Positions 1-25,935 of a stretch of DNA of 27,533 nt are shown one piece after another. This stretch comes from Thermoproteota archaeon. GTDB lineage: Archaea > Korarchaeota > Korarchaeia > Korarchaeales > Korarchaeaceae. The stretch is from assembly GCA_027491735.1 (NCBI GenBank), contig JAOZGP010000033.1, forward strand, positions 1 to 27,533. Reading direction: 5' to 3'. The number at the start of each line of letters is the position of its first letter. Positions within the stretch are counted from its first letter, which is position 1. The notes beneath the pieces were generated by a model. It did no database searches, was not told the origin of the DNA, and worked only from the letters and a program-made list of their open reading frames with translations. A program made the translations under genes and the position numbers.

Positions 1-74
1 GGCCTCGCCTCGATGTGCTCCAATACCAGCCTCCTCACGACCTCCTTTGGGTCTTCAAGTTCTGAACCTCTCAT
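1..74 (-). CDS. 5' part of an unidentified gene running off the left edge (MRGSELEDPKEVVRRLVLEHIEAR...)
   Basis: ATG at 74-72 opens a frame that stays open to position 1; TTTTTATCC TATA-like box about 20-27 nt upstream on the - strand. Confidence 0.5.
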   Translation of the reverse strand, partial: MRGSELEDPKEVVRRLVLEHIEAR

Positions 75-146
75 GAAGCGGAGATTTCAGCCGGATAAAA
101 AGTAGCTTGTGTGGACGAGTAGTTCCGGTGGATCCCCTATGAAGTT

Positions 147-223
147 ATTTAATGTGCCGTTTTAGCAGCGAAGGTGACATAGGTTTAAATAATTTAATGT
201 GCCATTCTATATTGAAAGGTGAC
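147..223 (+). repeat. Two imperfect 32-bp direct repeats with a 45-bp period flanking a TATA box; putative antitoxin operator
   Basis: ATTTAATGTGCC at 147-158 and 192-203; AAGGTGAC at 171-178 and 216-223 (both offset by 45); TTTAAATA at 184-191 lies between them. Confidence 0.75.
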
Positions 224-227
224 TGCA

Positions 228-935
228 ATGTACTTGGAGAGCTTCAGGGCGGAGTTAGCTAAGAGCTTGCTGGGCAGCTTGTTCAGGGTTAGGGATGTCG
301 AGAAGGTTCATCCTAGGGCCAAGGAGTACTTGCACAGGTTGAGCAAGAGAGGCATAGTAAGGCGCGTCGGCTGGGGCTGGTACTATATGCCCGTAGAGTA
401 TAGGGATGCTTGGGAATTCTTAGCCAGAGATAAGGGGTTCAAGGTGATAATCAAGCAGACGGCTGCGAGCATATGGAACTATGACTTCATCCACCGAGAC
501 ATATATTGGTTAGCCGTCGAGGACCGATCCTACAAGAAGGCTTTAGAGGATTTCGCAAGGCAGATGGGCTGGAGCTTCGAAGTGGAGTACTACGATAGAG
601 TACCCTACGAGTACGTGAGGGTCGACGAGTTGTTTGTTGAGTCTCCCGAATCCTGCATAGCAAACTGCATATCTGAGTGGTCCTTCACCGATGCGTTTGC
701 GATATTATACTTCAGGAGGGATGAAGTAGACTTCGAGAAGTTGAGAAAAATGGCTAGGTGGAAGCGCATATCTAAAACGGATACTAGGGTATGGACAGCA
801 ATAAAATACGGCTGCAGCTTACTAAACGAGAAGTTAGGGAGGCGAGTCTTCAGAGTCAGATCCACCGACTTAGAGCGTGAAGATATCAGGGAGTTGATAG
901 AGGAGGCCGCCGAAAAGGTGGTCGAGTTTGCCTAG
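228..935 (+). CDS. AbiEi-like type IV toxin-antitoxin antitoxin (N-terminal winged HTH)
   Basis: N-terminal YLHRLSKRGIVRRVGWGWYY matches the AbiEi wHTH pattern; overlaps a downstream nucleotidyltransferase; ATG 228 preferred to GTG 219 because a GGTGA SD lies at 218-222. Confidence 0.75.
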   Translation: MYLESFRAELAKSLLGSLFRVRDVEKVHPRAKEYLHRLSKRGIVRRVGWGWYYMPVEYRDAWEFLARDKGFKVIIKQTAASIWNYDFIHRDIYWLAVEDRSYKKALEDFARQMGWSFEVEYYDRVPYEYVRVDELFVESPESCIANCISEWSFTDAFAILYFRRDEVDFEKLRKMARWKRISKTDTRVWTAIKYGCSLLNEKLGRRVFRVRSTDLEREDIRELIEEAAEKVVEFA

Positions 936-13210: not shown

Positions 13211-14137
13211 TTAATGGAGCATGCTTGCCAACGTGCTCGACGACGAGAATGAGAGGAGGAAGAGCAGAGAGCAGAGGGCACCCCTCCTTACAATGATCCC
13301 CAGGGAGAAGCTCGTCAGGAATCCTATCACTCCCAGAGAAATCCAGCATCCGAGGAACGACGTGCCTGCCAGTATGCCTCCGAACAGGAGGCTGAGCAGA
13401 TAGGCCTCTCTCCTCTCCTTTCCGATGATTCTTCGCCACTCCTCGTTGGTCTCGGCGTTACACCTCTCCAGGTCAGCCACCCTCCGTAACAGGAGGGACA
13501 TGTCCCTCCTGCTCACATTTGACATCAGGACCTTGGCCCACAGTCCCTTCTCCCTGGACAGCACGTCCTGTAGAGTTTCAATCCCGACAACAAGATTCGG
13601 ATGCAAGGAGGCCAGTAACTTAGCGAGCCCTCTTCTCCTCTCAACAGCGAAGGCGAGCTCATCCACGAATCCCGGATTTGCTCCCTCAATCATCTCATCA
13701 CTGAACCTGAACGTCGAGCTCACAAGCAAAAGAGGAAGAAGGAGTGAGACCAGAGCGAGAGAATCGACTCTTCTGAAGATCATGTTGGCAATCACGGCTA
13801 TCGAGAGAAGAAAACCAGTGGAGAGCACGAAACCAAGAACCTCCTTGGATCTGGAGAGGGTGTCCTTGAGAGAGATCCTCACGGTCCTTACGTAGGAGGA
13901 GAGGATCTCCTCAAAGCTAGCCCCTGAAAGCACGGATACAACGAAGTCATCCTCTTTTAGAAGCTTCCTCAAGCAGATCCCGTCCACGCAGCTCACGACA
14001 GCAGCCATTCTCACAGAGGGGAATTCCCTGCTGACCTCCATCACACCCTTCCACGGGCTCCACACGGCTCCTGATGAGAGGAGATAGAGGAACCTCGTTC
14101 TCCTGATCAGCTGGCTTGGACGCATGGCTCCCAACAT
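13211..14137 (-). CDS. Membrane protein, possibly a very divergent GspF/TadB-C-type platform protein
   Basis: Two repeats of a soluble segment followed by TM helices; overlaps the 3' end of a secretion ATPase; family assignment rests on context only. Confidence 0.55.
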   Translation of the reverse strand: MLGAMRPSQLIRRTRFLYLLSSGAVWSPWKGVMEVSREFPSVRMAAVVSCVDGICLRKLLKEDDFVVSVLSGASFEEILSSYVRTVRISLKDTLSRSKEVLGFVLSTGFLLSIAVIANMIFRRVDSLALVSLLLPLLLVSSTFRFSDEMIEGANPGFVDELAFAVERRRGLAKLLASLHPNLVVGIETLQDVLSREKGLWAKVLMSNVSRRDMSLLLRRVADLERCNAETNEEWRRIIGKERREAYLLSLLFGGILAGTSFLGCWISLGVIGFLTSFSLGIIVRRGALCSLLFLLSFSSSSTLASMLH

Positions 14138-15330
14138 CCTCTGGAGAACCTATAGATCTCCGAGACCTTCCTCCTTATCATGAACACCAGAAGGGATCCC
14201 TCTAGGGCATACTCCAGCCCCCAGCTTCTCCATTTGCTGAGGAGATGTCCTCTGGATCTTCCATGAGTGGTCGCCAGCACCTTGAACCCACTTTCGTGGG
14301 CCACAGCAAAAGCCCTCACATCTCCGGAATCCAGCAACTCCCCAAGAAACACGACATCTGGGTTCCTGTGAAGCAGATTTATCACAGCCTTCTCCCTATC
14401 GTCCCTTATCTCGTAGGCAACATGCTTCAACCCATGCTGATTCAGATCCTCTATCTCCCTTATCTCCTCGACGGAGATCACCCTGGTGTCCCTCGGAAGG
14501 GCTGAGAGTATGGCGTTGCAGAGGGTCGTCTTGCCAACACCTGTCCCTCCAAACACGATCACAGGATCCCCCTTATCCAAGGAGTTGAGGATGAGGGAGG
14601 CCTCTTCCTTGCTGACTGTTCCAAGTTTTATCAGGGTGTCAAGCTTCAGCTCCCTCATTGCAGACAGGTTCCTGATGGATATCGATCCCGTGGACGAGGG
14701 CGGTCCGTCCAAGCCAATCCTGATGGTCCTTCCCATGAACCTGAGGTCCACCTTGGCAAAGGGACTTATCAGGTCGAACCTCACCTCCTCCGAACACTCG
14801 ACAACTGTTCTGATCTTCTCAAACTCTCTCTCGCTCATGATCACATTCCTCACGGCCATCCTCCCCAACTCTATATGATCCAGGTAGATCTCTCTGTTCA
14901 ACACTCCGTAGACCTCGGTCACTCCATCTGAAAGGGCCAGAGACAAGATGGGCCAGAGCTTAGTGGATCTAAGGCAAACCTCCTCGACGAGCTTGGGCTC
15001 AACTCCCAGCTTCGATAGGAATTCAGCTCTCAACCTGTAAGCCTCCTCTAAATCGGGGTTCTTGGGGTAGACAGACCTGACATGGTGGAGCATGACCTCA
15101 GCCGAGGCGTCCATACCAGAGGCCCTGCTGTAAGGGATGAGGACCCCTCTTATTGGATCGAGGAAGCCTCCGAGAACGCTGACACATCCAGATACGTCAA
15201 CAGACCTCGAGTTCTTTGGTATTCTAAGGAGCTCCCTCCTAAAAGGAAACCTCCTGATCTTCAGGATCTCTCCACCCCTCCTCTCTATGAGGGAGAGGGC
15301 AGTTCTCAGGTCCAGATCGTTGAACCTCAT
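14107..15330 (-). CDS. Type II/IV secretion ATPase (CpaF/VirB11/FlaI-like)
   Basis: GGTGVGKTT Walker A, VISVEEIREI Asp box, LHRNPDVVFLGE Walker B, ATTHG His box. Confidence 0.88.
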   Translation of the reverse strand: MRFNDLDLRTALSLIERRGGEILKIRRFPFRRELLRIPKNSRSVDVSGCVSVLGGFLDPIRGVLIPYSRASGMDASAEVMLHHVRSVYPKNPDLEEAYRLRAEFLSKLGVEPKLVEEVCLRSTKLWPILSLALSDGVTEVYGVLNREIYLDHIELGRMAVRNVIMSEREFEKIRTVVECSEEVRFDLISPFAKVDLRFMGRTIRIGLDGPPSSTGSISIRNLSAMRELKLDTLIKLGTVSKEEASLILNSLDKGDPVIVFGGTGVGKTTLCNAILSALPRDTRVISVEEIREIEDLNQHGLKHVAYEIRDDREKAVINLLHRNPDVVFLGELLDSGDVRAFAVAHESGFKVLATTHGRSRGHLLSKWRSWGLEYALEGSLLVFMIRRKVSEIYRFSRGCWEPCVQAS

Positions 15331-19951: not shown

Positions 19952-22033
19952 ATGGATGCTACATTACCTGGGGTAATCGTTGGTGCTTTATCCATTCTCG
20001 GTATCCTCATCGCCCTTCTCCTCAGATATAAGATATCCAGGATGGAATCCGGGACCAAGAGGATGATACAAATAAACAAAGCTATAAGGGTGGGCTCCAC
20101 CGCCTATCTTAAGAGGCAGTACAAGGTAATCTTGGGAGTGATGGTTGCGCTCTCGATTCTCATATACTCCTTAGATGTGATGATGAACGGAGGCATCCCG
20201 TTTATAGCTTGCTCCTTTGCCCTTGGAACAATCTGCTCTCTGCTGGCTGGATACATAGCTATGGATACAGCCACACTAACGAATGTTAAGGCAGCGCAGG
20301 CGGCCAGGGAGAGCGAGACAAAGCCCCTCAAGGTCGCTTTCTCGGGAGGAGTTGTGCTCGGGATAAGCGTTGTTTCGATGAGCCTTCTGGGGATCACAGG
20401 TCTATTCTACCTCTACTGGTTGCTCACAGGGGATGTGTACAAAGTTCCCCTGCTTATAATGGGATTCGGGTTCGGCGCTAGCTTAGCAGCCCTTTTCGCC
20501 CAGCTTGGAGGAGGGATCTACACAAAAGCTGCAGACATAGGAGCTGATCTCGTGGGGAAGGTGGAGGCCGGAATTCCGGAGGACGATCCCAGGAATCCGG
20601 CGGTTATAGCGGACAATGTGGGTGACAATGTCGGGGATTGCGCCGGAAGAGGAGCTGACCTCTTCGAGTCGCTCTCGGCCGAGATGATAGGGTCGATAAT
20701 AATAGGATCAGTCGTCTTCTTGGCCACAAGAAATCTGTACTTTCTGTTCTTTCCTCTCATGGCTGGAGCAGCGGGCATAGCGGGGACCTTGATAGGAGCA
20801 CTCTTCGTCAGACCAAGGAGAGGGGAGGCTCCGGTCGCCTCGATGAGAAAGGGGATGGTGGCTACCTGTATAACGCTGGGAGTTCTCTTCTACTTGGTAA
20901 CGCTTCCTATTGGACCGGGATATGTTTATCTGTATGTAGCCTCCCTGCTTGGCCTAGCTGTCGCTCTGGTGGTTGAAGCTGTGATAGAGTACTACACTGA
21001 GGAGCACAAACCCCTCAAGGAACTTGTTGATTCCACTAAGACTGGAACAGCCACCGAGATACTTATGGGACTGGCCCTGGGAATGGAAGTCCCAGTAACT
21101 CCTGTGATCACAGTTCTAGCAGCTTTAGGAGCTGCTTATATGCTCGGAAGGTCCTTCGGAGAAGCGGCTGGTATAGATCCACACATAGCTGGAATATATG
21201 GAACAGTGGCTGCCACGATAGGAGTTCTGTCCTTGACGGGAATAATCCTCTCCATGGACGGCTATGGACCCATAGCTGACAACGCCAGCGGGATCATAGA
21301 GATGGCCGACCTCGAGGAGGAGGTTGGGTCTGATGTGAAGGATGTACTCGATGCTGCTGGAAATACCACGAAGTCCTTGGCAAAGGGATTCGCCATGGCG
21401 AGCGCCATAATGGCATCCTTGCTTTTATTCCAAGCCTACGTGGACGTCGTCAAGATAAAGGTCTACAATCTGATGGAGCCGAGGACCCTGATAGGGCTGA
21501 TAGTGGGGGCAGCAATACCCTTCCTCTTCTCCAGCCAGGCTCTTAAAGCAGTCGGCAGAACTGCCTCCAAGATGATAGAGGAGGTTAGAAGGCAGTTTCG
21601 CGAGCATCCCGAGATACTCGATGGGAAGATCGAGCCTGACTACGCTAGGTGTGTGGAGATAAGCACGAAAGCCGCTCAGAGATACATGGTACCCCCAACT
21701 CTTGTGTCCCTTGTAGTTCCTCTTGTGGTTGGGTTCCTTCTAGGGCCGACGGCCGCAGGAGCTTTCCTAATAGGCGTGACGGCGTCCGGAATAATGCTGG
21801 CGTTTCTCATGAACACTGGAGGTGCTGCCTGGGATAACGCCAAGAAGTACTTGGAGAGGATCGGGTTGAAGGGAACCGATGAGCATAAGGCCGCGGTGGT
21901 GTGCGACACTGTTGGAGATCCTCTGAAGGACACAGCAGGTCCAAGCCTTCACATACTGCTCAAGCTTGTGAACAACGAGTCGATAATATTCGGAGCGGCT
22001 TTCCTGGCTTACTCCCTCTATCTTCTCGGATGA
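19952..22033 (+). CDS. hppA: Membrane-bound H+-translocating pyrophosphatase, predicted K+-independent
   Basis: GGGIYTKAADIGADLVGKVEAGIPEDDPRN, DNVGDNVGD, YGPIADNA, GNTTKS (Lys at the K+-dependence position), DTVGDPLKDTAGPS. Confidence 0.96.
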   Translation: MDATLPGVIVGALSILGILIALLLRYKISRMESGTKRMIQINKAIRVGSTAYLKRQYKVILGVMVALSILIYSLDVMMNGGIPFIACSFALGTICSLLAGYIAMDTATLTNVKAAQAARESETKPLKVAFSGGVVLGISVVSMSLLGITGLFYLYWLLTGDVYKVPLLIMGFGFGASLAALFAQLGGGIYTKAADIGADLVGKVEAGIPEDDPRNPAVIADNVGDNVGDCAGRGADLFESLSAEMIGSIIIGSVVFLATRNLYFLFFPLMAGAAGIAGTLIGALFVRPRRGEAPVASMRKGMVATCITLGVLFYLVTLPIGPGYVYLYVASLLGLAVALVVEAVIEYYTEEHKPLKELVDSTKTGTATEILMGLALGMEVPVTPVITVLAALGAAYMLGRSFGEAAGIDPHIAGIYGTVAATIGVLSLTGIILSMDGYGPIADNASGIIEMADLEEEVGSDVKDVLDAAGNTTKSLAKGFAMASAIMASLLLFQAYVDVVKIKVYNLMEPRTLIGLIVGAAIPFLFSSQALKAVGRTASKMIEEVRRQFREHPEILDGKIEPDYARCVEISTKAAQRYMVPPTLVSLVVPLVVGFLLGPTAAGAFLIGVTASGIMLAFLMNTGGAAWDNAKKYLERIGLKGTDEHKAAVVCDTVGDPLKDTAGPSLHILLKLVNNESIIFGAAFLAYSLYLLG

Positions 22034-23115
22034 ACTCTCCTCTTTTTTATCATCTCAGTCACTCCTCTATCTATGGCCTCTACTATCCTCCTTGATGCTT
22101 CTCTGAGCTCTCTGCTCAGCTCCTCTCCAAGCACTAGGAGGCTGTCCTCAATAATTATGTCCCTCTTGGGATACCTCAATACAAGGCCTTCGCTCTCCTC
22201 AAGCCTGAGTTCATCCCCACAGAGGGCGACGGGAACGAGGTTTCCTCCTGACGAAACATTTGAGACGAATGAACTGTCTAGAGATCTGGGACAGGTTCTC
22301 AGATGAGCTCCGACCACCTTCCCGTCGAAGACATAAACTCTGAGGTCGAAGTTCCTCAGGCGTCCATTGTCAAGAAACAGGGGAGGAACGTTCACCCTCT
22401 CCTGAACGAGCACGGGCCACTCCAAAATCTCGTCGCAGGACCTCACAAGCCTAACTCCCTTTCCACCGTAGCTTTTAAGGAGCTTAACGACGGCCTCTCC
22501 TCTCTCAGCCAGAAACTCTTTCAACTCCTCCTTCTCCTTGGCTAGGAATGTCCTCGGAATTTTCACAAGCTTGAAATCTCTCAGGACCTTGGAGACTATT
22601 TTGTAGGTCCTCCACTTGTTCTCCGTGCCAAGTCCAGCCTCGCTTGGATTGACAACTGGTTGAGCTATCCCCAAAGGGAACTTAAACGTCCTCCTCACAA
22701 TGAGATCCGGAACCTCATCTTCCAGACAGAGCAGATTGCCGCGGTATCTGGCCTCACTCTTCCTCACGAAAAAAGCCCTGTATCCGAGCTCCCTGAACCT
22801 GTCCCTTAAGATCCTCCTCTCCATCCCCATGTAGGCATTCCATTTCTCAGGTACTGAGATCGCAACTTTCCTCATCTCAAAACCGCTTCTGGAGCAGTAA
22901 TCCTCGCAGAGATCTATGAACAGATCCACTATCCTCAGCTGGTCCTCGAAATACTCTCTGAGATCCGGCCTACACCTAACGACATGTTCAGCAAGTTTCA
23001 TCGCATAGAACAACCCGCCTGATACGGCGTTCGCCTCCAAGAAGTACAGAACACCCTCCTCACCGATGACGAAATCTAGGCTGGCGTAAGGGTAGTACCT
23101 GAGACCCAGCCCCAA
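22018..23115 (-). CDS. Circularly permuted RimK/LysX-like ATP-grasp peptide ligase
   Basis: Core VVNP..NKW..IPRT..VVK..YGGKGV..VQERV..DLRVYV..SNVSSGG; the normally C-terminal D..ExN metal motif (SLDFVIGEEGVLYFLEAN) is at residues ~12-30. Confidence 0.85.
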   Translation of the reverse strand: MGLGLRYYPYASLDFVIGEEGVLYFLEANAVSGGLFYAMKLAEHVVRCRPDLREYFEDQLRIVDLFIDLCEDYCSRSGFEMRKVAISVPEKWNAYMGMERRILRDRFRELGYRAFFVRKSEARYRGNLLCLEDEVPDLIVRRTFKFPLGIAQPVVNPSEAGLGTENKWRTYKIVSKVLRDFKLVKIPRTFLAKEKEELKEFLAERGEAVVKLLKSYGGKGVRLVRSCDEILEWPVLVQERVNVPPLFLDNGRLRNFDLRVYVFDGKVVGAHLRTCPRSLDSSFVSNVSSGGNLVPVALCGDELRLEESEGLVLRYPKRDIIIEDSLLVLGEELSRELREASRRIVEAIDRGVTEMIKKRRVHPRR

Positions 23116-23117
23116 GG

Positions 23118-24497
23118 CTAACCCCTCTTCGATAGTCTTCTCAACTCCACAGCCAGGTAGAGGGCCGGGTTTCTGGCAGCTAGCACCTCATCCTCCTCAC
23201 AAAGCGGCACGTATCCCTTGAGGGTCAGAAGCCAGTACCTGATCCTCACCATGTCGAATCCACTCACCAAACCTCCTTCTCTGGAGAAGAAGAGCTTACA
23301 CTCCGGATACAGGATCCCCTTGAGAATTTCGTCCTTCCTAATGCTCTCTCCCTCGAGAGAGCTTCTATCAGATCCTATTTTAACCTTCAGAAAGGTTCTC
23401 AAGCTCTTCTCGTATGAACACATCTTCTCAGGGATCCTGACTATTCTAGTTGGGGAACTGAGCTCCCTTTCCGGGATTCCCCTTCTCAGGTTGTTGGGGA
23501 TCGAAGCGCCTATCTCATCTAGATACGGTTCGAGGTGGTCCAACATCATGAGGAACGACTCTCTCGCGCTTAAAACCCCATCTCCAGACAGAAATGTCGC
23601 CTCAATACCTTTCCTCACAGCCCTCTCTCTGTTCCTCTTGAGATATTTCCTTTCCTCAATTTTTATTCCATTCCTTAGCATGTCGACTGCTTGGATGGAG
23701 AGGGCGGCGATCAGATGGGCTATCCCTGTCAGGTACTCCTCCCTCGACTGGTTGTCCAAGCACCTGACTTCCACCCTGCTAGCCGTCCTGGAGGTGTGCA
23801 AGTCCTCCGGGATGTTTGTGAGGGGTCCTCTTATGGCGATCTCCGTTAACCTATCTCCTGTCCTATTGGTCACGAGCTCTGATCTGACGGAGCCAAGTCT
23901 CCTGAAGATCAGGCCATATCTCGACTTCCCCCTCTCCCTCCAGGGGATGAAAGTCAACGGTTTTCTCCTCAGAACGACTTCCTGAGATTCCTTGAGTACG
24001 CTGCTGTAGGCGATTCTAGCGCTCGCGAAGCCGTCCCTGGGCGAGTTGGCTGAGATGGCTATGAGCTCCGGAAGGTGATTCCTTATGTTGGAGTATATCC
24101 ACGCCAGGGCCTTGCTGCTGAGGATCCCTCCCTCTCTCATGACTGACACGCTTATATGGGTGCCGTTGATCGGAAGTGGAGTGCTGTCAATGGGGTGCAT
24201 GCTCTCAACATAGATGAACTGGTTTGTCTTAACTGCTGCAGATGCTAAAATGCTCCTTGAGAAGGAAATGGCTTTCTCTATCTGTGAGGGGCTCAGAGGC
24301 CTGGTCACATATTCCAGCTGTGAGGGATTCGGCTCCCACTGAATTCCTATAAGAGATCTCCTGGCTAGGTTGAGCTTTTCCTCATCTTGAAGAAGATCTT
24401 TGGCCAGATTGAGGAGCACAGGCTCAGGGAAACTGCTGAGAAATCCTGCTCTGTTAACCAGAAAGACTTCCTCCTCCACCCCCAACCTGATGATCAT
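23118..24497 (-). CDS. GCS2/YbdK-like carboxylate-amine (glutamate-cysteine-type) ligase
   Basis: LGVEEEVFLVN, SQLEYVT, SMHP, GTHISVS, LPELIAISANSP, FASAR, RVEVRCLD, NRERAVRKG in canonical order. Confidence 0.85.
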   Translation of the reverse strand: MIIRLGVEEEVFLVNRAGFLSSFPEPVLLNLAKDLLQDEEKLNLARRSLIGIQWEPNPSQLEYVTRPLSPSQIEKAISFSRSILASAAVKTNQFIYVESMHPIDSTPLPINGTHISVSVMREGGILSSKALAWIYSNIRNHLPELIAISANSPRDGFASARIAYSSVLKESQEVVLRRKPLTFIPWRERGKSRYGLIFRRLGSVRSELVTNRTGDRLTEIAIRGPLTNIPEDLHTSRTASRVEVRCLDNQSREEYLTGIAHLIAALSIQAVDMLRNGIKIEERKYLKRNRERAVRKGIEATFLSGDGVLSARESFLMMLDHLEPYLDEIGASIPNNLRRGIPERELSSPTRIVRIPEKMCSYEKSLRTFLKVKIGSDRSSLEGESIRKDEILKGILYPECKLFFSREGGLVSGFDMVRIRYWLLTLKGYVPLCEEDEVLAARNPALYLAVELRRLSKRG

Positions 24498-24500
24498 CGG

Positions 24501-25379
24501 TCACTTCTCCCCCACCGCATCAAAGAACTTGTTCAACGCCTTGACGAGCTCCTTTTTCTTCCTTCTTCCACTCTCAGAGACCTCGAGCTGAACTCCCCAC
24601 ACTCCTGGAATAGAGGAACACTCCCATATGATGTCTCCCCCCGTCCTCCACCCTTTCAAGCAAACTGCCACATCAAAGCTCTCTAGCGATGACCTCAAAC
24701 AATCGATGATCCTGAGATCGGCTGTCTGGTCCGGGAAAAAACCCAGCTCAACATCGAAATCAGTTCCTCTACACGTGTGAAAGTCTAGAACCCCTTTTAT
24801 ACATCCTTCCTCGATGATCCTCTCCATCGAGATCCTGGGAGGGGAGAGCCTTGAAGAGAATCGGTTAAAGTCCATGTAGACGCGGGACACCCTGAAGATC
24901 AGCAAGTGAGCACCTGTTTTCTTGGCCACGAGAGAGCCTATTCCCTCAGCCTCCTCATCGGCGAAGGGCTTCTTCGCGTGGGGGATCGTTATGAGAAAAG
25001 GTCTGTATCCTGGGATGTACTCATATTGCCCTGAGAGGTCCCTCATGGGAAGGGAGGCAAGAGGACTGCGGGACCACCTGAAGCCAACTTTGGATCTCAG
25101 GTAGTGTTCTCTGCTCATCAATATAGCCCTCTCAACGGTTTTCGTCATGACGTCGAGGAAGATCTCAGGATCATCTCTCAGGACGGTGAGCGCAGGAAGG
25201 GAGTAGGTCAGAAAGGCAGAGATCTTTGGGTTGCTTCTCAGAATAGACTTCATCAGATAGGCAATCTCCCTGGCATAGGACCTCCTGGCCCTCTTTCCCG
25301 ATGAAGGATTCCTCTTCATGAGCTTAAGATAGGCGTGCAGATCCAGCAGCTCCTGGAGGACCTCTCTCCCCTCGCTCAT
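24501..25379 (-). CDS. N-formylglutamate amidohydrolase-like Zn hydrolase with an ~120-aa N-terminal extension
   Basis: ITIPHA, SRVYMDFNR, LDFHT, DVELG, GGDI, GVQLEV motifs. Confidence 0.78.
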   Translation of the reverse strand: MSEGREVLQELLDLHAYLKLMKRNPSSGKRARRSYAREIAYLMKSILRSNPKISAFLTYSLPALTVLRDDPEIFLDVMTKTVERAILMSREHYLRSKVGFRWSRSPLASLPMRDLSGQYEYIPGYRPFLITIPHAKKPFADEEAEGIGSLVAKKTGAHLLIFRVSRVYMDFNRFSSRLSPPRISMERIIEEGCIKGVLDFHTCRGTDFDVELGFFPDQTADLRIIDCLRSSLESFDVAVCLKGWRTGGDIIWECSSIPGVWGVQLEVSESGRRKKKELVKALNKFFDAVGEK

Positions 25380-25400
25380 CCACCTCGATTGACCAGTCTT

Positions 25401-25430
25401 GCTTATAAATGCTCGCCGAGAGATTTTTAA
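25401..25430. promoter_or_regulatory. Divergent TATA boxes for the ligase operon (-) and the phosphatase (+)
   Basis: TTTATAA on the - strand at 25403-25409 (~24 nt before ATG 25379); TTTTTAA on the + strand at 25424-25430 (~23 nt before GTG 25453). Confidence 0.6.
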
Positions 25431-25452
25431 GGGGACATTCGATCTCCTTCCT

Positions 25453-25935
25453 GTGAGGCCTCCCAGAAACTTCTCATGGATCGAGAGCTATCTTGCCGCC
25501 TCAGCCATGCCAAGGGATTCCCTAGAGATAAAGTGGCTTAGGTCCTCCGGAATCACGACGATAGTGTCATTGGAGCCCATGGACGATCACCTGGAGGAGG
25601 AGGCTAGGTCCTTGGGAATCAGGGTTGTCAGGATGAGCGTTCCCGAGTTCTCCCCTCCGAGCATGGATGACATGCTGAGGTTCATCAGCATGGTGGAGGA
25701 GGAGAGAAGGAGGGGAGGAAGGGTACTGGTCCATTGCTATGCTGGGTGTGGGAGAACCGGCACGATCGTCGCTGCTTACCTCGTCCACAGGGGGATATCT
25801 GCCGGGGAGGCCATCGAAAGGATAAGGGCTCTCAGACCTTGTTCGATAGAGAGCATCTCTCAGGAGAGCTCAATTTACTGGTTCGAGAGAGTCATCTCGA
25901 GCGAACGCTCCCGTAATCGACAAGGGCCTTCATAG
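25453..25935 (+). CDS. Dual-specificity/CX5R protein phosphatase (Cdc14/DUSP23-like)
   Basis: NFSWI, VLVHCYAGCGRTG P-loop, RALRPCSIES..Q; GTG 25453 preferred over TTG 25399, which overlaps the TATA box. Confidence 0.9.
   Translation: MRPPRNFSWIESYLAASAMPRDSLEIKWLRSSGITTIVSLEPMDDHLEEEARSLGIRVVRMSVPEFSPPSMDDMLRFISMVEEERRRGGRVLVHCYAGCGRTGTIVAAYLVHRGISAGEAIERIRALRPCSIESISQESSIYWFERVISSERSRNRQGPS

Follow-up and report, generated by a model that had tools for sequence, protein, structure and literature searches.

Circular permutation of the ATP-grasp fold is known from glutathione synthetase (GS), glutathionylspermidine synthetase (GspS) and the CP_ATPgrasp families. In CP_ATPgrasp_1/2 proteins such as 3n6x, the hairpin with the acidic D/ExN residues stands ahead of the pre-ATP-grasp domain. 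The same topology is found in 3k1t, a 'putative gamma-glutamylcysteine synthetase' from Methylobacillus flagellatus, which we take to be a member of Pfam PF08886 (GshA; TIGR02049). Here we describe the gene of a permuted ATP-grasp ligase on contig JAOZGP010000033.1 of the Thermoproteota archaeon assembly GCA_027491735.1 (Korarchaeaceae); the complete stretch analysed, 27,533 nucleotides (nt) in length, is referred to as the window. The best explanation of the data as a whole, to which we assign a probability of roughly 0.7, is that the gene encodes a catalytically intact permuted ATP-grasp amide ligase with an inherited permutation, and that it belongs to a three-gene module. The gene and the parts of its product, in chain order, are as follows.

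22018 to 23115, minus strand: permuted ATP-grasp ligase gene, 365 amino acids (aa), TTG start; Pfam and NCBIfam models match its core only.
23029 to 23088, minus strand: N-terminal beta-hairpin, residues 10-29, bearing the relocated Mg/ATP motif (D14, E27 and N29); strands 10-17 and 23-29, predicted local distance difference test (pLDDT) 82-86.
22888 to 23022, minus strand: three linker helices, residues 32-76 (32-48, 50-60 and 62-76 in the model), connecting the former C-terminal end with the former N-terminus.
22696 to 22869, minus strand: pre-ATP-grasp (N) domain, residues 83-140; residue 1 of RimK, LysX and ArgX corresponds to model residue 82, and the hhalign match to non-permuted relatives begins at 85.
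22216 to 22662, minus strand: central domain plus the beginning of the C-domain, residues 152-300, matched by the Pfam RimK, GSH-S_ATP and YheCD models.
22126 to 22215, minus strand: beta-meander insert specific to the family, residues 301-330, which separates the GG strand from the last helix; strands 304-307, 311-315, 318-322 and 325-330.
22042 to 22125, minus strand: C-terminal helix, residues 331-358, followed by the new C-terminus; the alignments of RimK, LysX and ArgX reach model residue 350 with their own residues up to about 242.

The circular permutation of this protein is real and clean. It had been proposed in an initial annotation on the basis of a 'GL..gvD....g.yvlEvN..pG' segment at the N-terminus, and all strings quoted there are found in the open reading frame (ORF), i.e. 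GLGLRYYPYASLDFVIGEEGVLYFLEANAVSGG at the N-terminal end, then NKW, IPRT, GGKGV, DLRVYV and SNVSSGG, and finally ELREASRRIVEAI close to the C-terminus, after which 17 residues remain. The Pfam RimK model (PF08443) matches residues 164-306 with 28.3 bits, using only positions 1-137 of its 188, and GSH-S_ATP matches with positions 12-133 of 175; the C-terminal Mg-ligand part of both models finds no counterpart on the C-terminal side of the protein. A canonical RimK architecture is colinear over the whole domain including the D/ExN part, which is located here at residues 10-36. A profile built from 27 members of the protein's family finds tubulin-tyrosine ligase (TTL) residues 309-338 at its positions 6-35 (whole-chain E about 1e-7) and, at positions 156-304, LysX residues 72-202 (E 2.5e-10). 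The corresponding matches of a 4-sequence profile are weaker, and the hairpin segment also matches biotin carboxylase residues 263-290 or thereabouts. A hidden Markov model (HMM) of 19 non-permuted relatives recognizes the native protein in reversed order, with HMM positions 266-292 at residues 10-36 and positions 98-240 at residues 152-297. The permuted order thus follows from the Pfam coordinates, the family-profile matches, the reversed HMM order and the invariance of the catalytic residues.

The latter comprise D14, E27, N29, K167, K211, Q238, R259 and R273, which are invariant in 27 of 27 members despite sequence identities to the window protein of 21-84%. The family carries the two ATP-binding lysines, the hinge Q/E and the acidic D...ExN Mg ligands of the ATP-grasp superfamily. 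Residues 152-300, which bear K167, K211, GGKG, Q238, D257/R259, R273 and SNxxxGG, match the non-permuted relatives residue by residue, and each invariant residue of the permuted family is aligned with an invariant residue of the non-permuted ones. RimK, LysX, ArgX and MptN accordingly possess counterparts of all invariant catalytic residues and differ in the order of the segments. Since its catalytic residues are both invariant and matched in this way, the enzyme looks catalytically intact at the sequence level.

The predicted structure is in accordance with the profile data. The AlphaFold model, based on a 4-sequence alignment, reaches a pLDDT of 79.3 and a predicted template-modelling score of 0.81, and three of the five models score at least 74. 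It displays the three-domain ATP-grasp fold with many matching ATP-grasp structures (Z 9-18), and the D/ExN hairpin is positioned N-terminal to the pre-ATP-grasp and central domains. The top Foldseek ranks are occupied by known permuted ATP-grasps, namely 3k1t (first, E 4.9e-11), 3n6x, YgiC/YjfC, GspS and eukaryotic glutathione synthetases; RimK is found at rank 22. In the VIA-align comparisons, permuted structures align from model residue 1 (residue 6 for 3k1t) to residues 300-356. The highest Z-score is that of 3k1t (18.3; 291 residues, root-mean-square deviation 3.7), followed by 3n6x (16.9), the eukaryotic glutathione synthetases (15-16.5) and YgiC, YjfC and GspS (about 14). Topology and termini of 3k1t are the same as in our protein (model 6..356 corresponds to chain 39..423 of 424), although the sequence identity amounts to only 17%. 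The permuted folds of GspS, YgiC, YjfC and eukaryotic GS (together Z 13-16.5) show 8-16% identity and differ by large N-terminal additions and by chain ends at model positions of about 300-330. RimK, LysX and ArgX align exclusively at model 82..350 (own residues 1..242 or fewer; Z at most 10.6), and the last model helix is therefore the one that precedes the hairpin in ordinary ATP-grasps. This bears out the earlier statement that the protein ends just after this helix, and the TTL match together with the invariant D14, E27 and N29 does the same for the N-terminal segment.

A profile search over 1.84 billion cluster representatives retrieved 320 proteins at E<=0.001. Among them, 25 representatives at E<=1e-30 are 334-419 aa long and match almost the whole profile, with the exception of one fragment of 255 residues. 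The family, with a typical length of about 390 aa, is unnamed within a known kind of enzyme, the permuted ATP-grasps, and its members are listed in the source data as 'hypothetical protein' or under generic names. The best family-model matches for the core are of the RimK, GSH-S_ATP, YheCD and MptN type in Pfam and NCBIfam. Searches of the window protein with the Pfam models CP_ATPgrasp_1/2, GSP_synth and GSH_synth_ATP yielded no match at E<=1. Individual family members are touched weakly by CP_ATPgrasp_1 and CP_ATPgrasp_2 (1/27 each, E 0.031 and 0.021), GSP_synth (2/27, best E 7.4e-5), GSH_synth_ATP (1/27, E 0.035) and PF08886 (1/27, E 0.033). Judged by these matches, the family lies outside the named permuted Pfam families, and the initial view of a RimK-like middle part distinct from the known CP families holds. 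The window protein is thus below the curated cut-off of CP_ATPgrasp_1/2 and also deviates from them in its chain termini, because CP_ATPgrasp_2-type proteins and 3n6x have about 110-130 extra N-terminal residues and end after the GG motif, whereas the window protein lacks the extension and ends with helix 331-358. With the PF08886 GshA type it shares the fold and the termini of 3k1t without a family-model match; the PF08886 model found no hit in the genome of the window and 14 control genomes.

Within the phylum of the window, the ATP-grasp was found in 5 of 43 genomes, including 1 of the 25 of high quality, and the genome of the window contains one canonical RimK-family gene elsewhere. One member originates from an uncultured Aminipila bacterium, which shows that the family is not purely archaeal; a metagenome scan of the bacterial subgroup provided a single weak non-family locus (27% identity over 112 residues). 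No paper on a permuted RimK-like family appeared in the literature search listings, whose reach did not include the amidoligase survey of Iyer et al. 2009, so that a prior description is possible. The RAGNYA paper deals with other permutations.

The ligase gene is the last of three consecutive genes, which are separated by gaps of 3 and 2 nt. In transcriptional order, its two partners are the following.

24501 to 25379, minus strand: FGase/PghP-type amidohydrolase of 292 aa, encoded by the gene that opens the module; its N-terminal domain is helical.
23118 to 24497, minus strand: divergent YbdK/GCS2-type carboxylate-amine ligase, the upstream partner, 459 aa.

The three genes are adjacent in 8/8 loci, i.e. 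in the window and in 7/7 related loci, with two different gene orders and zero other conserved genes across the eight loci. The taxa concerned are uncultured 'Nitrososphaerota', Candidatus Methanodesulfokora, Njordarchaeota and Baldrarchaeota. Those 5/43 genomes of the phylum that have the permuted ATP-grasp are also the ones with the GCS2-like gene, and the two genes stand side by side. The tentative affiliation of the GCS2-like protein is based on a match to TIGR02050 (E 2.7e-14), on 17.4 bits with Pfam GCS2 (cut-off 21) and on a profile match to YbdK 1r8g (E 5.8e-4). The hydrolase belongs to the FGase/PghP family by both model match and fold. PF05013 recognizes it in 8/8 orthologues (best E 8e-11), with 20.2 bits for the window copy, which is below the cut-off of 28.9, and its structural model (pLDDT 78.6) finds 3a9l, 21dc, 2q7s, 2odf and 5onj as best folds, which represent phage poly-gamma-glutamate hydrolases, N-formylglutamate amidohydrolase and YndL. 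Single-sequence searches of the Protein Data Bank with both neighbour proteins returned nothing useful, and the same was true for the profile of alignment A3.

As a permuted ATP-grasp, the protein would be an amide ligase whose chain opens with the Mg-ATP-binding hairpin (D14, E27, N29). The three helices would lead on to the pre-ATP-grasp, central and C-domain elements, and the final helix would be equivalent to the one that normally stands before the hairpin. By analogy with other ATP-grasps, an acyl-phosphate would be formed on a carboxylate and then passed to an amine. According to a published analysis, linked ATP-grasp and COOH-NH2 ligases commonly carry out successive peptide ligations (PMC4431377). 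From this literature, the conserved module and the fold of the hydrolase we infer that two successive ATP-dependent ligations may build a small glutamyl-type peptide or amide, and that the FGase/PghP-type hydrolase would trim or recycle this product. Two-step ATP-dependent synthesis with a dedicated hydrolase is a reading to which we give slightly better than even odds. A glutathione-like product would be a bold subset of it; a review states that there is no recognised GshB in archaea (PMC7278568).

It is alternatively conceivable that the ATP-grasp attaches amino acids such as glutamates to a protein or ribosomal peptide, either C-terminally or on a side chain, in the manner of RimK and tubulin-tyrosine ligases, and that the hydrolase removes this tag. 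Such an activity would fit the matches of the TTL model to 23/27 and of RimK to 15/27 members, the presence of TTL and TTLL structures among the best sequence-profile matches, and the resemblance of the partner hydrolase to enzymes that cut glutamyl polymers. However, the eight loci contain no conserved small gene or carrier protein beside the three genes, neither partner shows a conserved acidic tail, and every locus includes a second ligase, which is of the small-molecule YbdK/GCS2 type. We consider tagging unlikely, and the synthesis of a small glutamyl-type product remains the preferred reading of the module. The module, which occurs in Korarchaeia-related, Njordarchaeota and Baldrarchaeota genomes, is a candidate glutamyl-type peptide pathway.

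The position of the gene within the module also bears on its integrity. The TTG start, the earliest ATG, GTG or TTG of the open frame, is located just 2 nt beyond the stop of the upstream gene, and a permuted appearance might in principle result from an incorrectly placed start, from a frameshift or from the fusion of pieces of two tandem ATP-grasp genes. This explanation is practically negligible, because the same architecture recurs in at least 25 cluster representatives and in the further loci L001-L010 and L012 (12 are listed, L011 being the window's own region), and the permuted gene comes first in the module in L004-L006. In addition, the upstream gene encodes a GCS2-like ligase and not an ATP-grasp, the downstream gene a convergent pyrophosphatase, and D14, E27 and N29 are invariant. 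The DNA 3' of the gene offers no possible source of a 'normal' C-terminal hairpin.

The relationship to other permuted ATP-grasps was investigated with fetched single-domain proteins of 250-500 aa, which were sorted by the position of the hairpin piece. The 133 classifiable proteins comprise 91 permuted, 14 non-permuted and 28 undetermined ones, and the permuted set consists of 28 family members, 56 others mostly of about 300 aa, and 7 of about 455 aa. A core-only HMM (residues 80-300, without the hairpin) found 32 permuted proteins among its best 40 non-family matches, together with 5 undetermined ones, 3 fragments or others, and no confidently non-permuted protein. In hhalign comparisons, the family is colinear with the permuted group of about 300 aa over positions 4-386 (E 1e-48). 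The match with the CP_ATPgrasp_2-type group of about 455 aa, two members of which reach the Pfam CP_ATPgrasp_2 cut-off, is colinear over 11-330 (E 7.7e-29, 291 columns) and begins at the hairpin, includes the linker helices and reaches the GG motif. The linker helices of the family are aligned with residues of about 134-186 of these proteins. The match with the non-permuted group covers the core only (E 1.3e-30). The sequence profile is also colinear with 3n6x (E 5.7e-6).

The core has its nearest relatives in the set of permuted RimK-like proteins with a length of about 300 aa (56 cluster representatives). These share the termini of the family and can be aligned colinearly with it from end to end; according to hhalign they are devoid of most of the linker helices and of the 301-330 beta-meander. 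In the examples P0034-P0140 the hairpin is located at residues 2-40 or thereabouts, and they are labelled RimK, ATP-grasp_3, YheCD, hypothetical or ATP-grasp domain-containing. Many proteins labelled RimK, ATP-grasp_3 or hypothetical are thus permuted, and for them domain models report a truncated domain only. The family described here is part of this larger, mostly unannotated group of permuted RimK-like proteins. Among the distant matches are also the giant proteins P0069, P0087 and P0112 (2356-3684 aa), which contain two to four repeated non-permuted ATP-grasp modules.

The core tree was calculated from 59 rows with 14/28 family, 24/56 short permuted, 7/7 long and 14/14 non-permuted sequences; the 28 undetermined proteins were excluded. 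Forcing all non-permuted rows to one side improved the log-likelihood by 10.6 compared with the free search, and the approximately unbiased (AU) test does not reject this single split (p-AU 0.709). An inherited permutation that was not newly made in this lineage is the simplest reading.

Several observations weigh against the explanation that we favor. The functional reading draws on fold and neighbourhood, and the 53.2 bits of the GCS2-like match to TIGR02050 lie far below the cut-off of 176.4. Two of the five AlphaFold models score 47-52, and residues 141-170 have a pLDDT of 57-60. The named permuted Pfam models give no match to the window protein. A rise of the score after moving the N-terminal residues to the C-terminus, which had been expected initially, did not occur. 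With the non-permuted HMM the native protein scores 100.2, and rotations by 36-78 residues score 99.8-101.0. Rotations by 20 and 30 residues score lower (90.4 and 97.8), and the control rotations at 120 and 300 are just as high (100.9 and 100.8). This test carries no information, since HMMER adds up the two pieces whatever their order, and the 30-residue insert at 301-330 blocks their merging; the domain coordinates, and not the rotation scores, hold the information about the permutation. The core tree is poorly resolved, with 10/56 inner branches well supported, and permuted and non-permuted rows are intermingled in the free topology. The data therefore do not reject a common origin, which is less than showing it, and the phylogeny proposed at the outset provides the AU result without settled deep branches. 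Finally, the family, the group of about 300 aa and 3k1t retain the last helix at the C-terminus. Their break is therefore located one helix later than that of GspS, YgiC, 3n6x and eukaryotic glutathione synthetase, in which the C-terminus corresponds to model positions of about 300-330. This later break could stem from an event of its own, from a duplicated ancestor that was resolved separately, or from a later change.

These termini are one of the arguments for a scenario in which the family descends from a canonical RimK-like gene through a separate duplication and truncation event, apart from CP_ATPgrasp, GSP_synth and eukaryotic GS. It is also compatible with the scoring of the core as RimK, GSH-S_ATP, YheCD or MptN rather than as a CP family, with the end of the CP_ATPgrasp_2-type proteins directly after the GG motif, with the weak match of their N-terminal extension to the last helix of the family (pairwise E 8e-4, probability 24%), and with their position as a separate well-supported group (99) in the free tree. 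By contrast, the proteins most closely related to the core are permuted and have identical termini, 3k1t shares these termini as well, and the alignment to the CP_ATPgrasp_2-type proteins stays colinear across hairpin and linker helices. The gain in likelihood under the one-side constraint points in the same direction. We regard an independent origin as decidedly unlikely, and the separate permutation event that had been put forward in the initial annotation is not supported.

The alternative offered there, an archaeal intermediate relevant to the origin of permuted ligases, survives in a weak form. The family is similarly close to the non-permuted group and to the CP_ATPgrasp_2-like proteins, as documented by the hhalign E-values; its strictly archaeal nature is contradicted by the Aminipila member. 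A far-reaching version would regard the family and the permuted RimK-like proteins of about 300 aa as surviving near-ancestral forms of all permuted ATP-grasps, linking the RimK type to CP_ATPgrasp, GspS and eukaryotic GS, with the archaeal GCS-like and permuted GS-like pair representing a glutathione-like gamma-glutamyl peptide pathway. We give this idea a slim chance of being correct. If true, it would be relevant to the as yet unexplained question of how the permuted eukaryotic glutathione synthetase arose, and the archaeal pair would be a feature of TACK and Asgard lineages. Irrespective of this, the unnamed conserved family adds a RimK-like sequence in permuted order to the known permuted ATP-grasps, and the break after, and not before, the helix that precedes the hairpin provides a concrete handle on how permutations arise.

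The putative translation signal of the permuted gene was read from the sequence.

23122 to 23127, minus strand: GAGGGG, a Shine-Dalgarno-like motif 6 nt 5' of the TTG, whose role is inferred.

Both partner genes exhibit additional domains. The GCS2-like protein carries a C-terminal extension of about 110 residues (23118-23450) without a family match, in which G394, L396, W422, G428, Y429 and D436 are invariant in eight sequences. In the three related genomes G012, G036 and G037, the GCS2-like match contains one in-frame stop (TGA or TAA), which is probably read-through past the end of the gene. The N-terminal 95 residues or so of the hydrolase (25095-25379) form an all-helical domain (helical region 2-90) ahead of the catalytic domain, followed by a low-confidence linker (94-114).

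The genes flanking the module were also inspected. A membrane H+-pyrophosphatase gene (19952-22033, plus strand) is convergent with the ATP-grasp gene and overlaps it by 16 nt; it is syntenic in L001-L003 (74-92% identity) but not in the Asgard loci. On the other side, a gene for a PTP-SAK dual-specificity/PTP-type phosphatase (25399-25935, plus strand; E 7e-21) is divergent from the module and not conserved beside it elsewhere. A 308-aa ORF (13211-14137, minus strand) is without a Pfam match at E<=1e-5; it overlaps a gene for a T2SSE-type ATPase (14107-15330) at the end of the latter. The window contains no tRNA genes. It also harbors ordinary archaeal housekeeping genes for a class V fructose-bisphosphatase, a seryl-tRNA synthetase, a thiolase, a helicase and an ADP-forming acyl-CoA synthetase.

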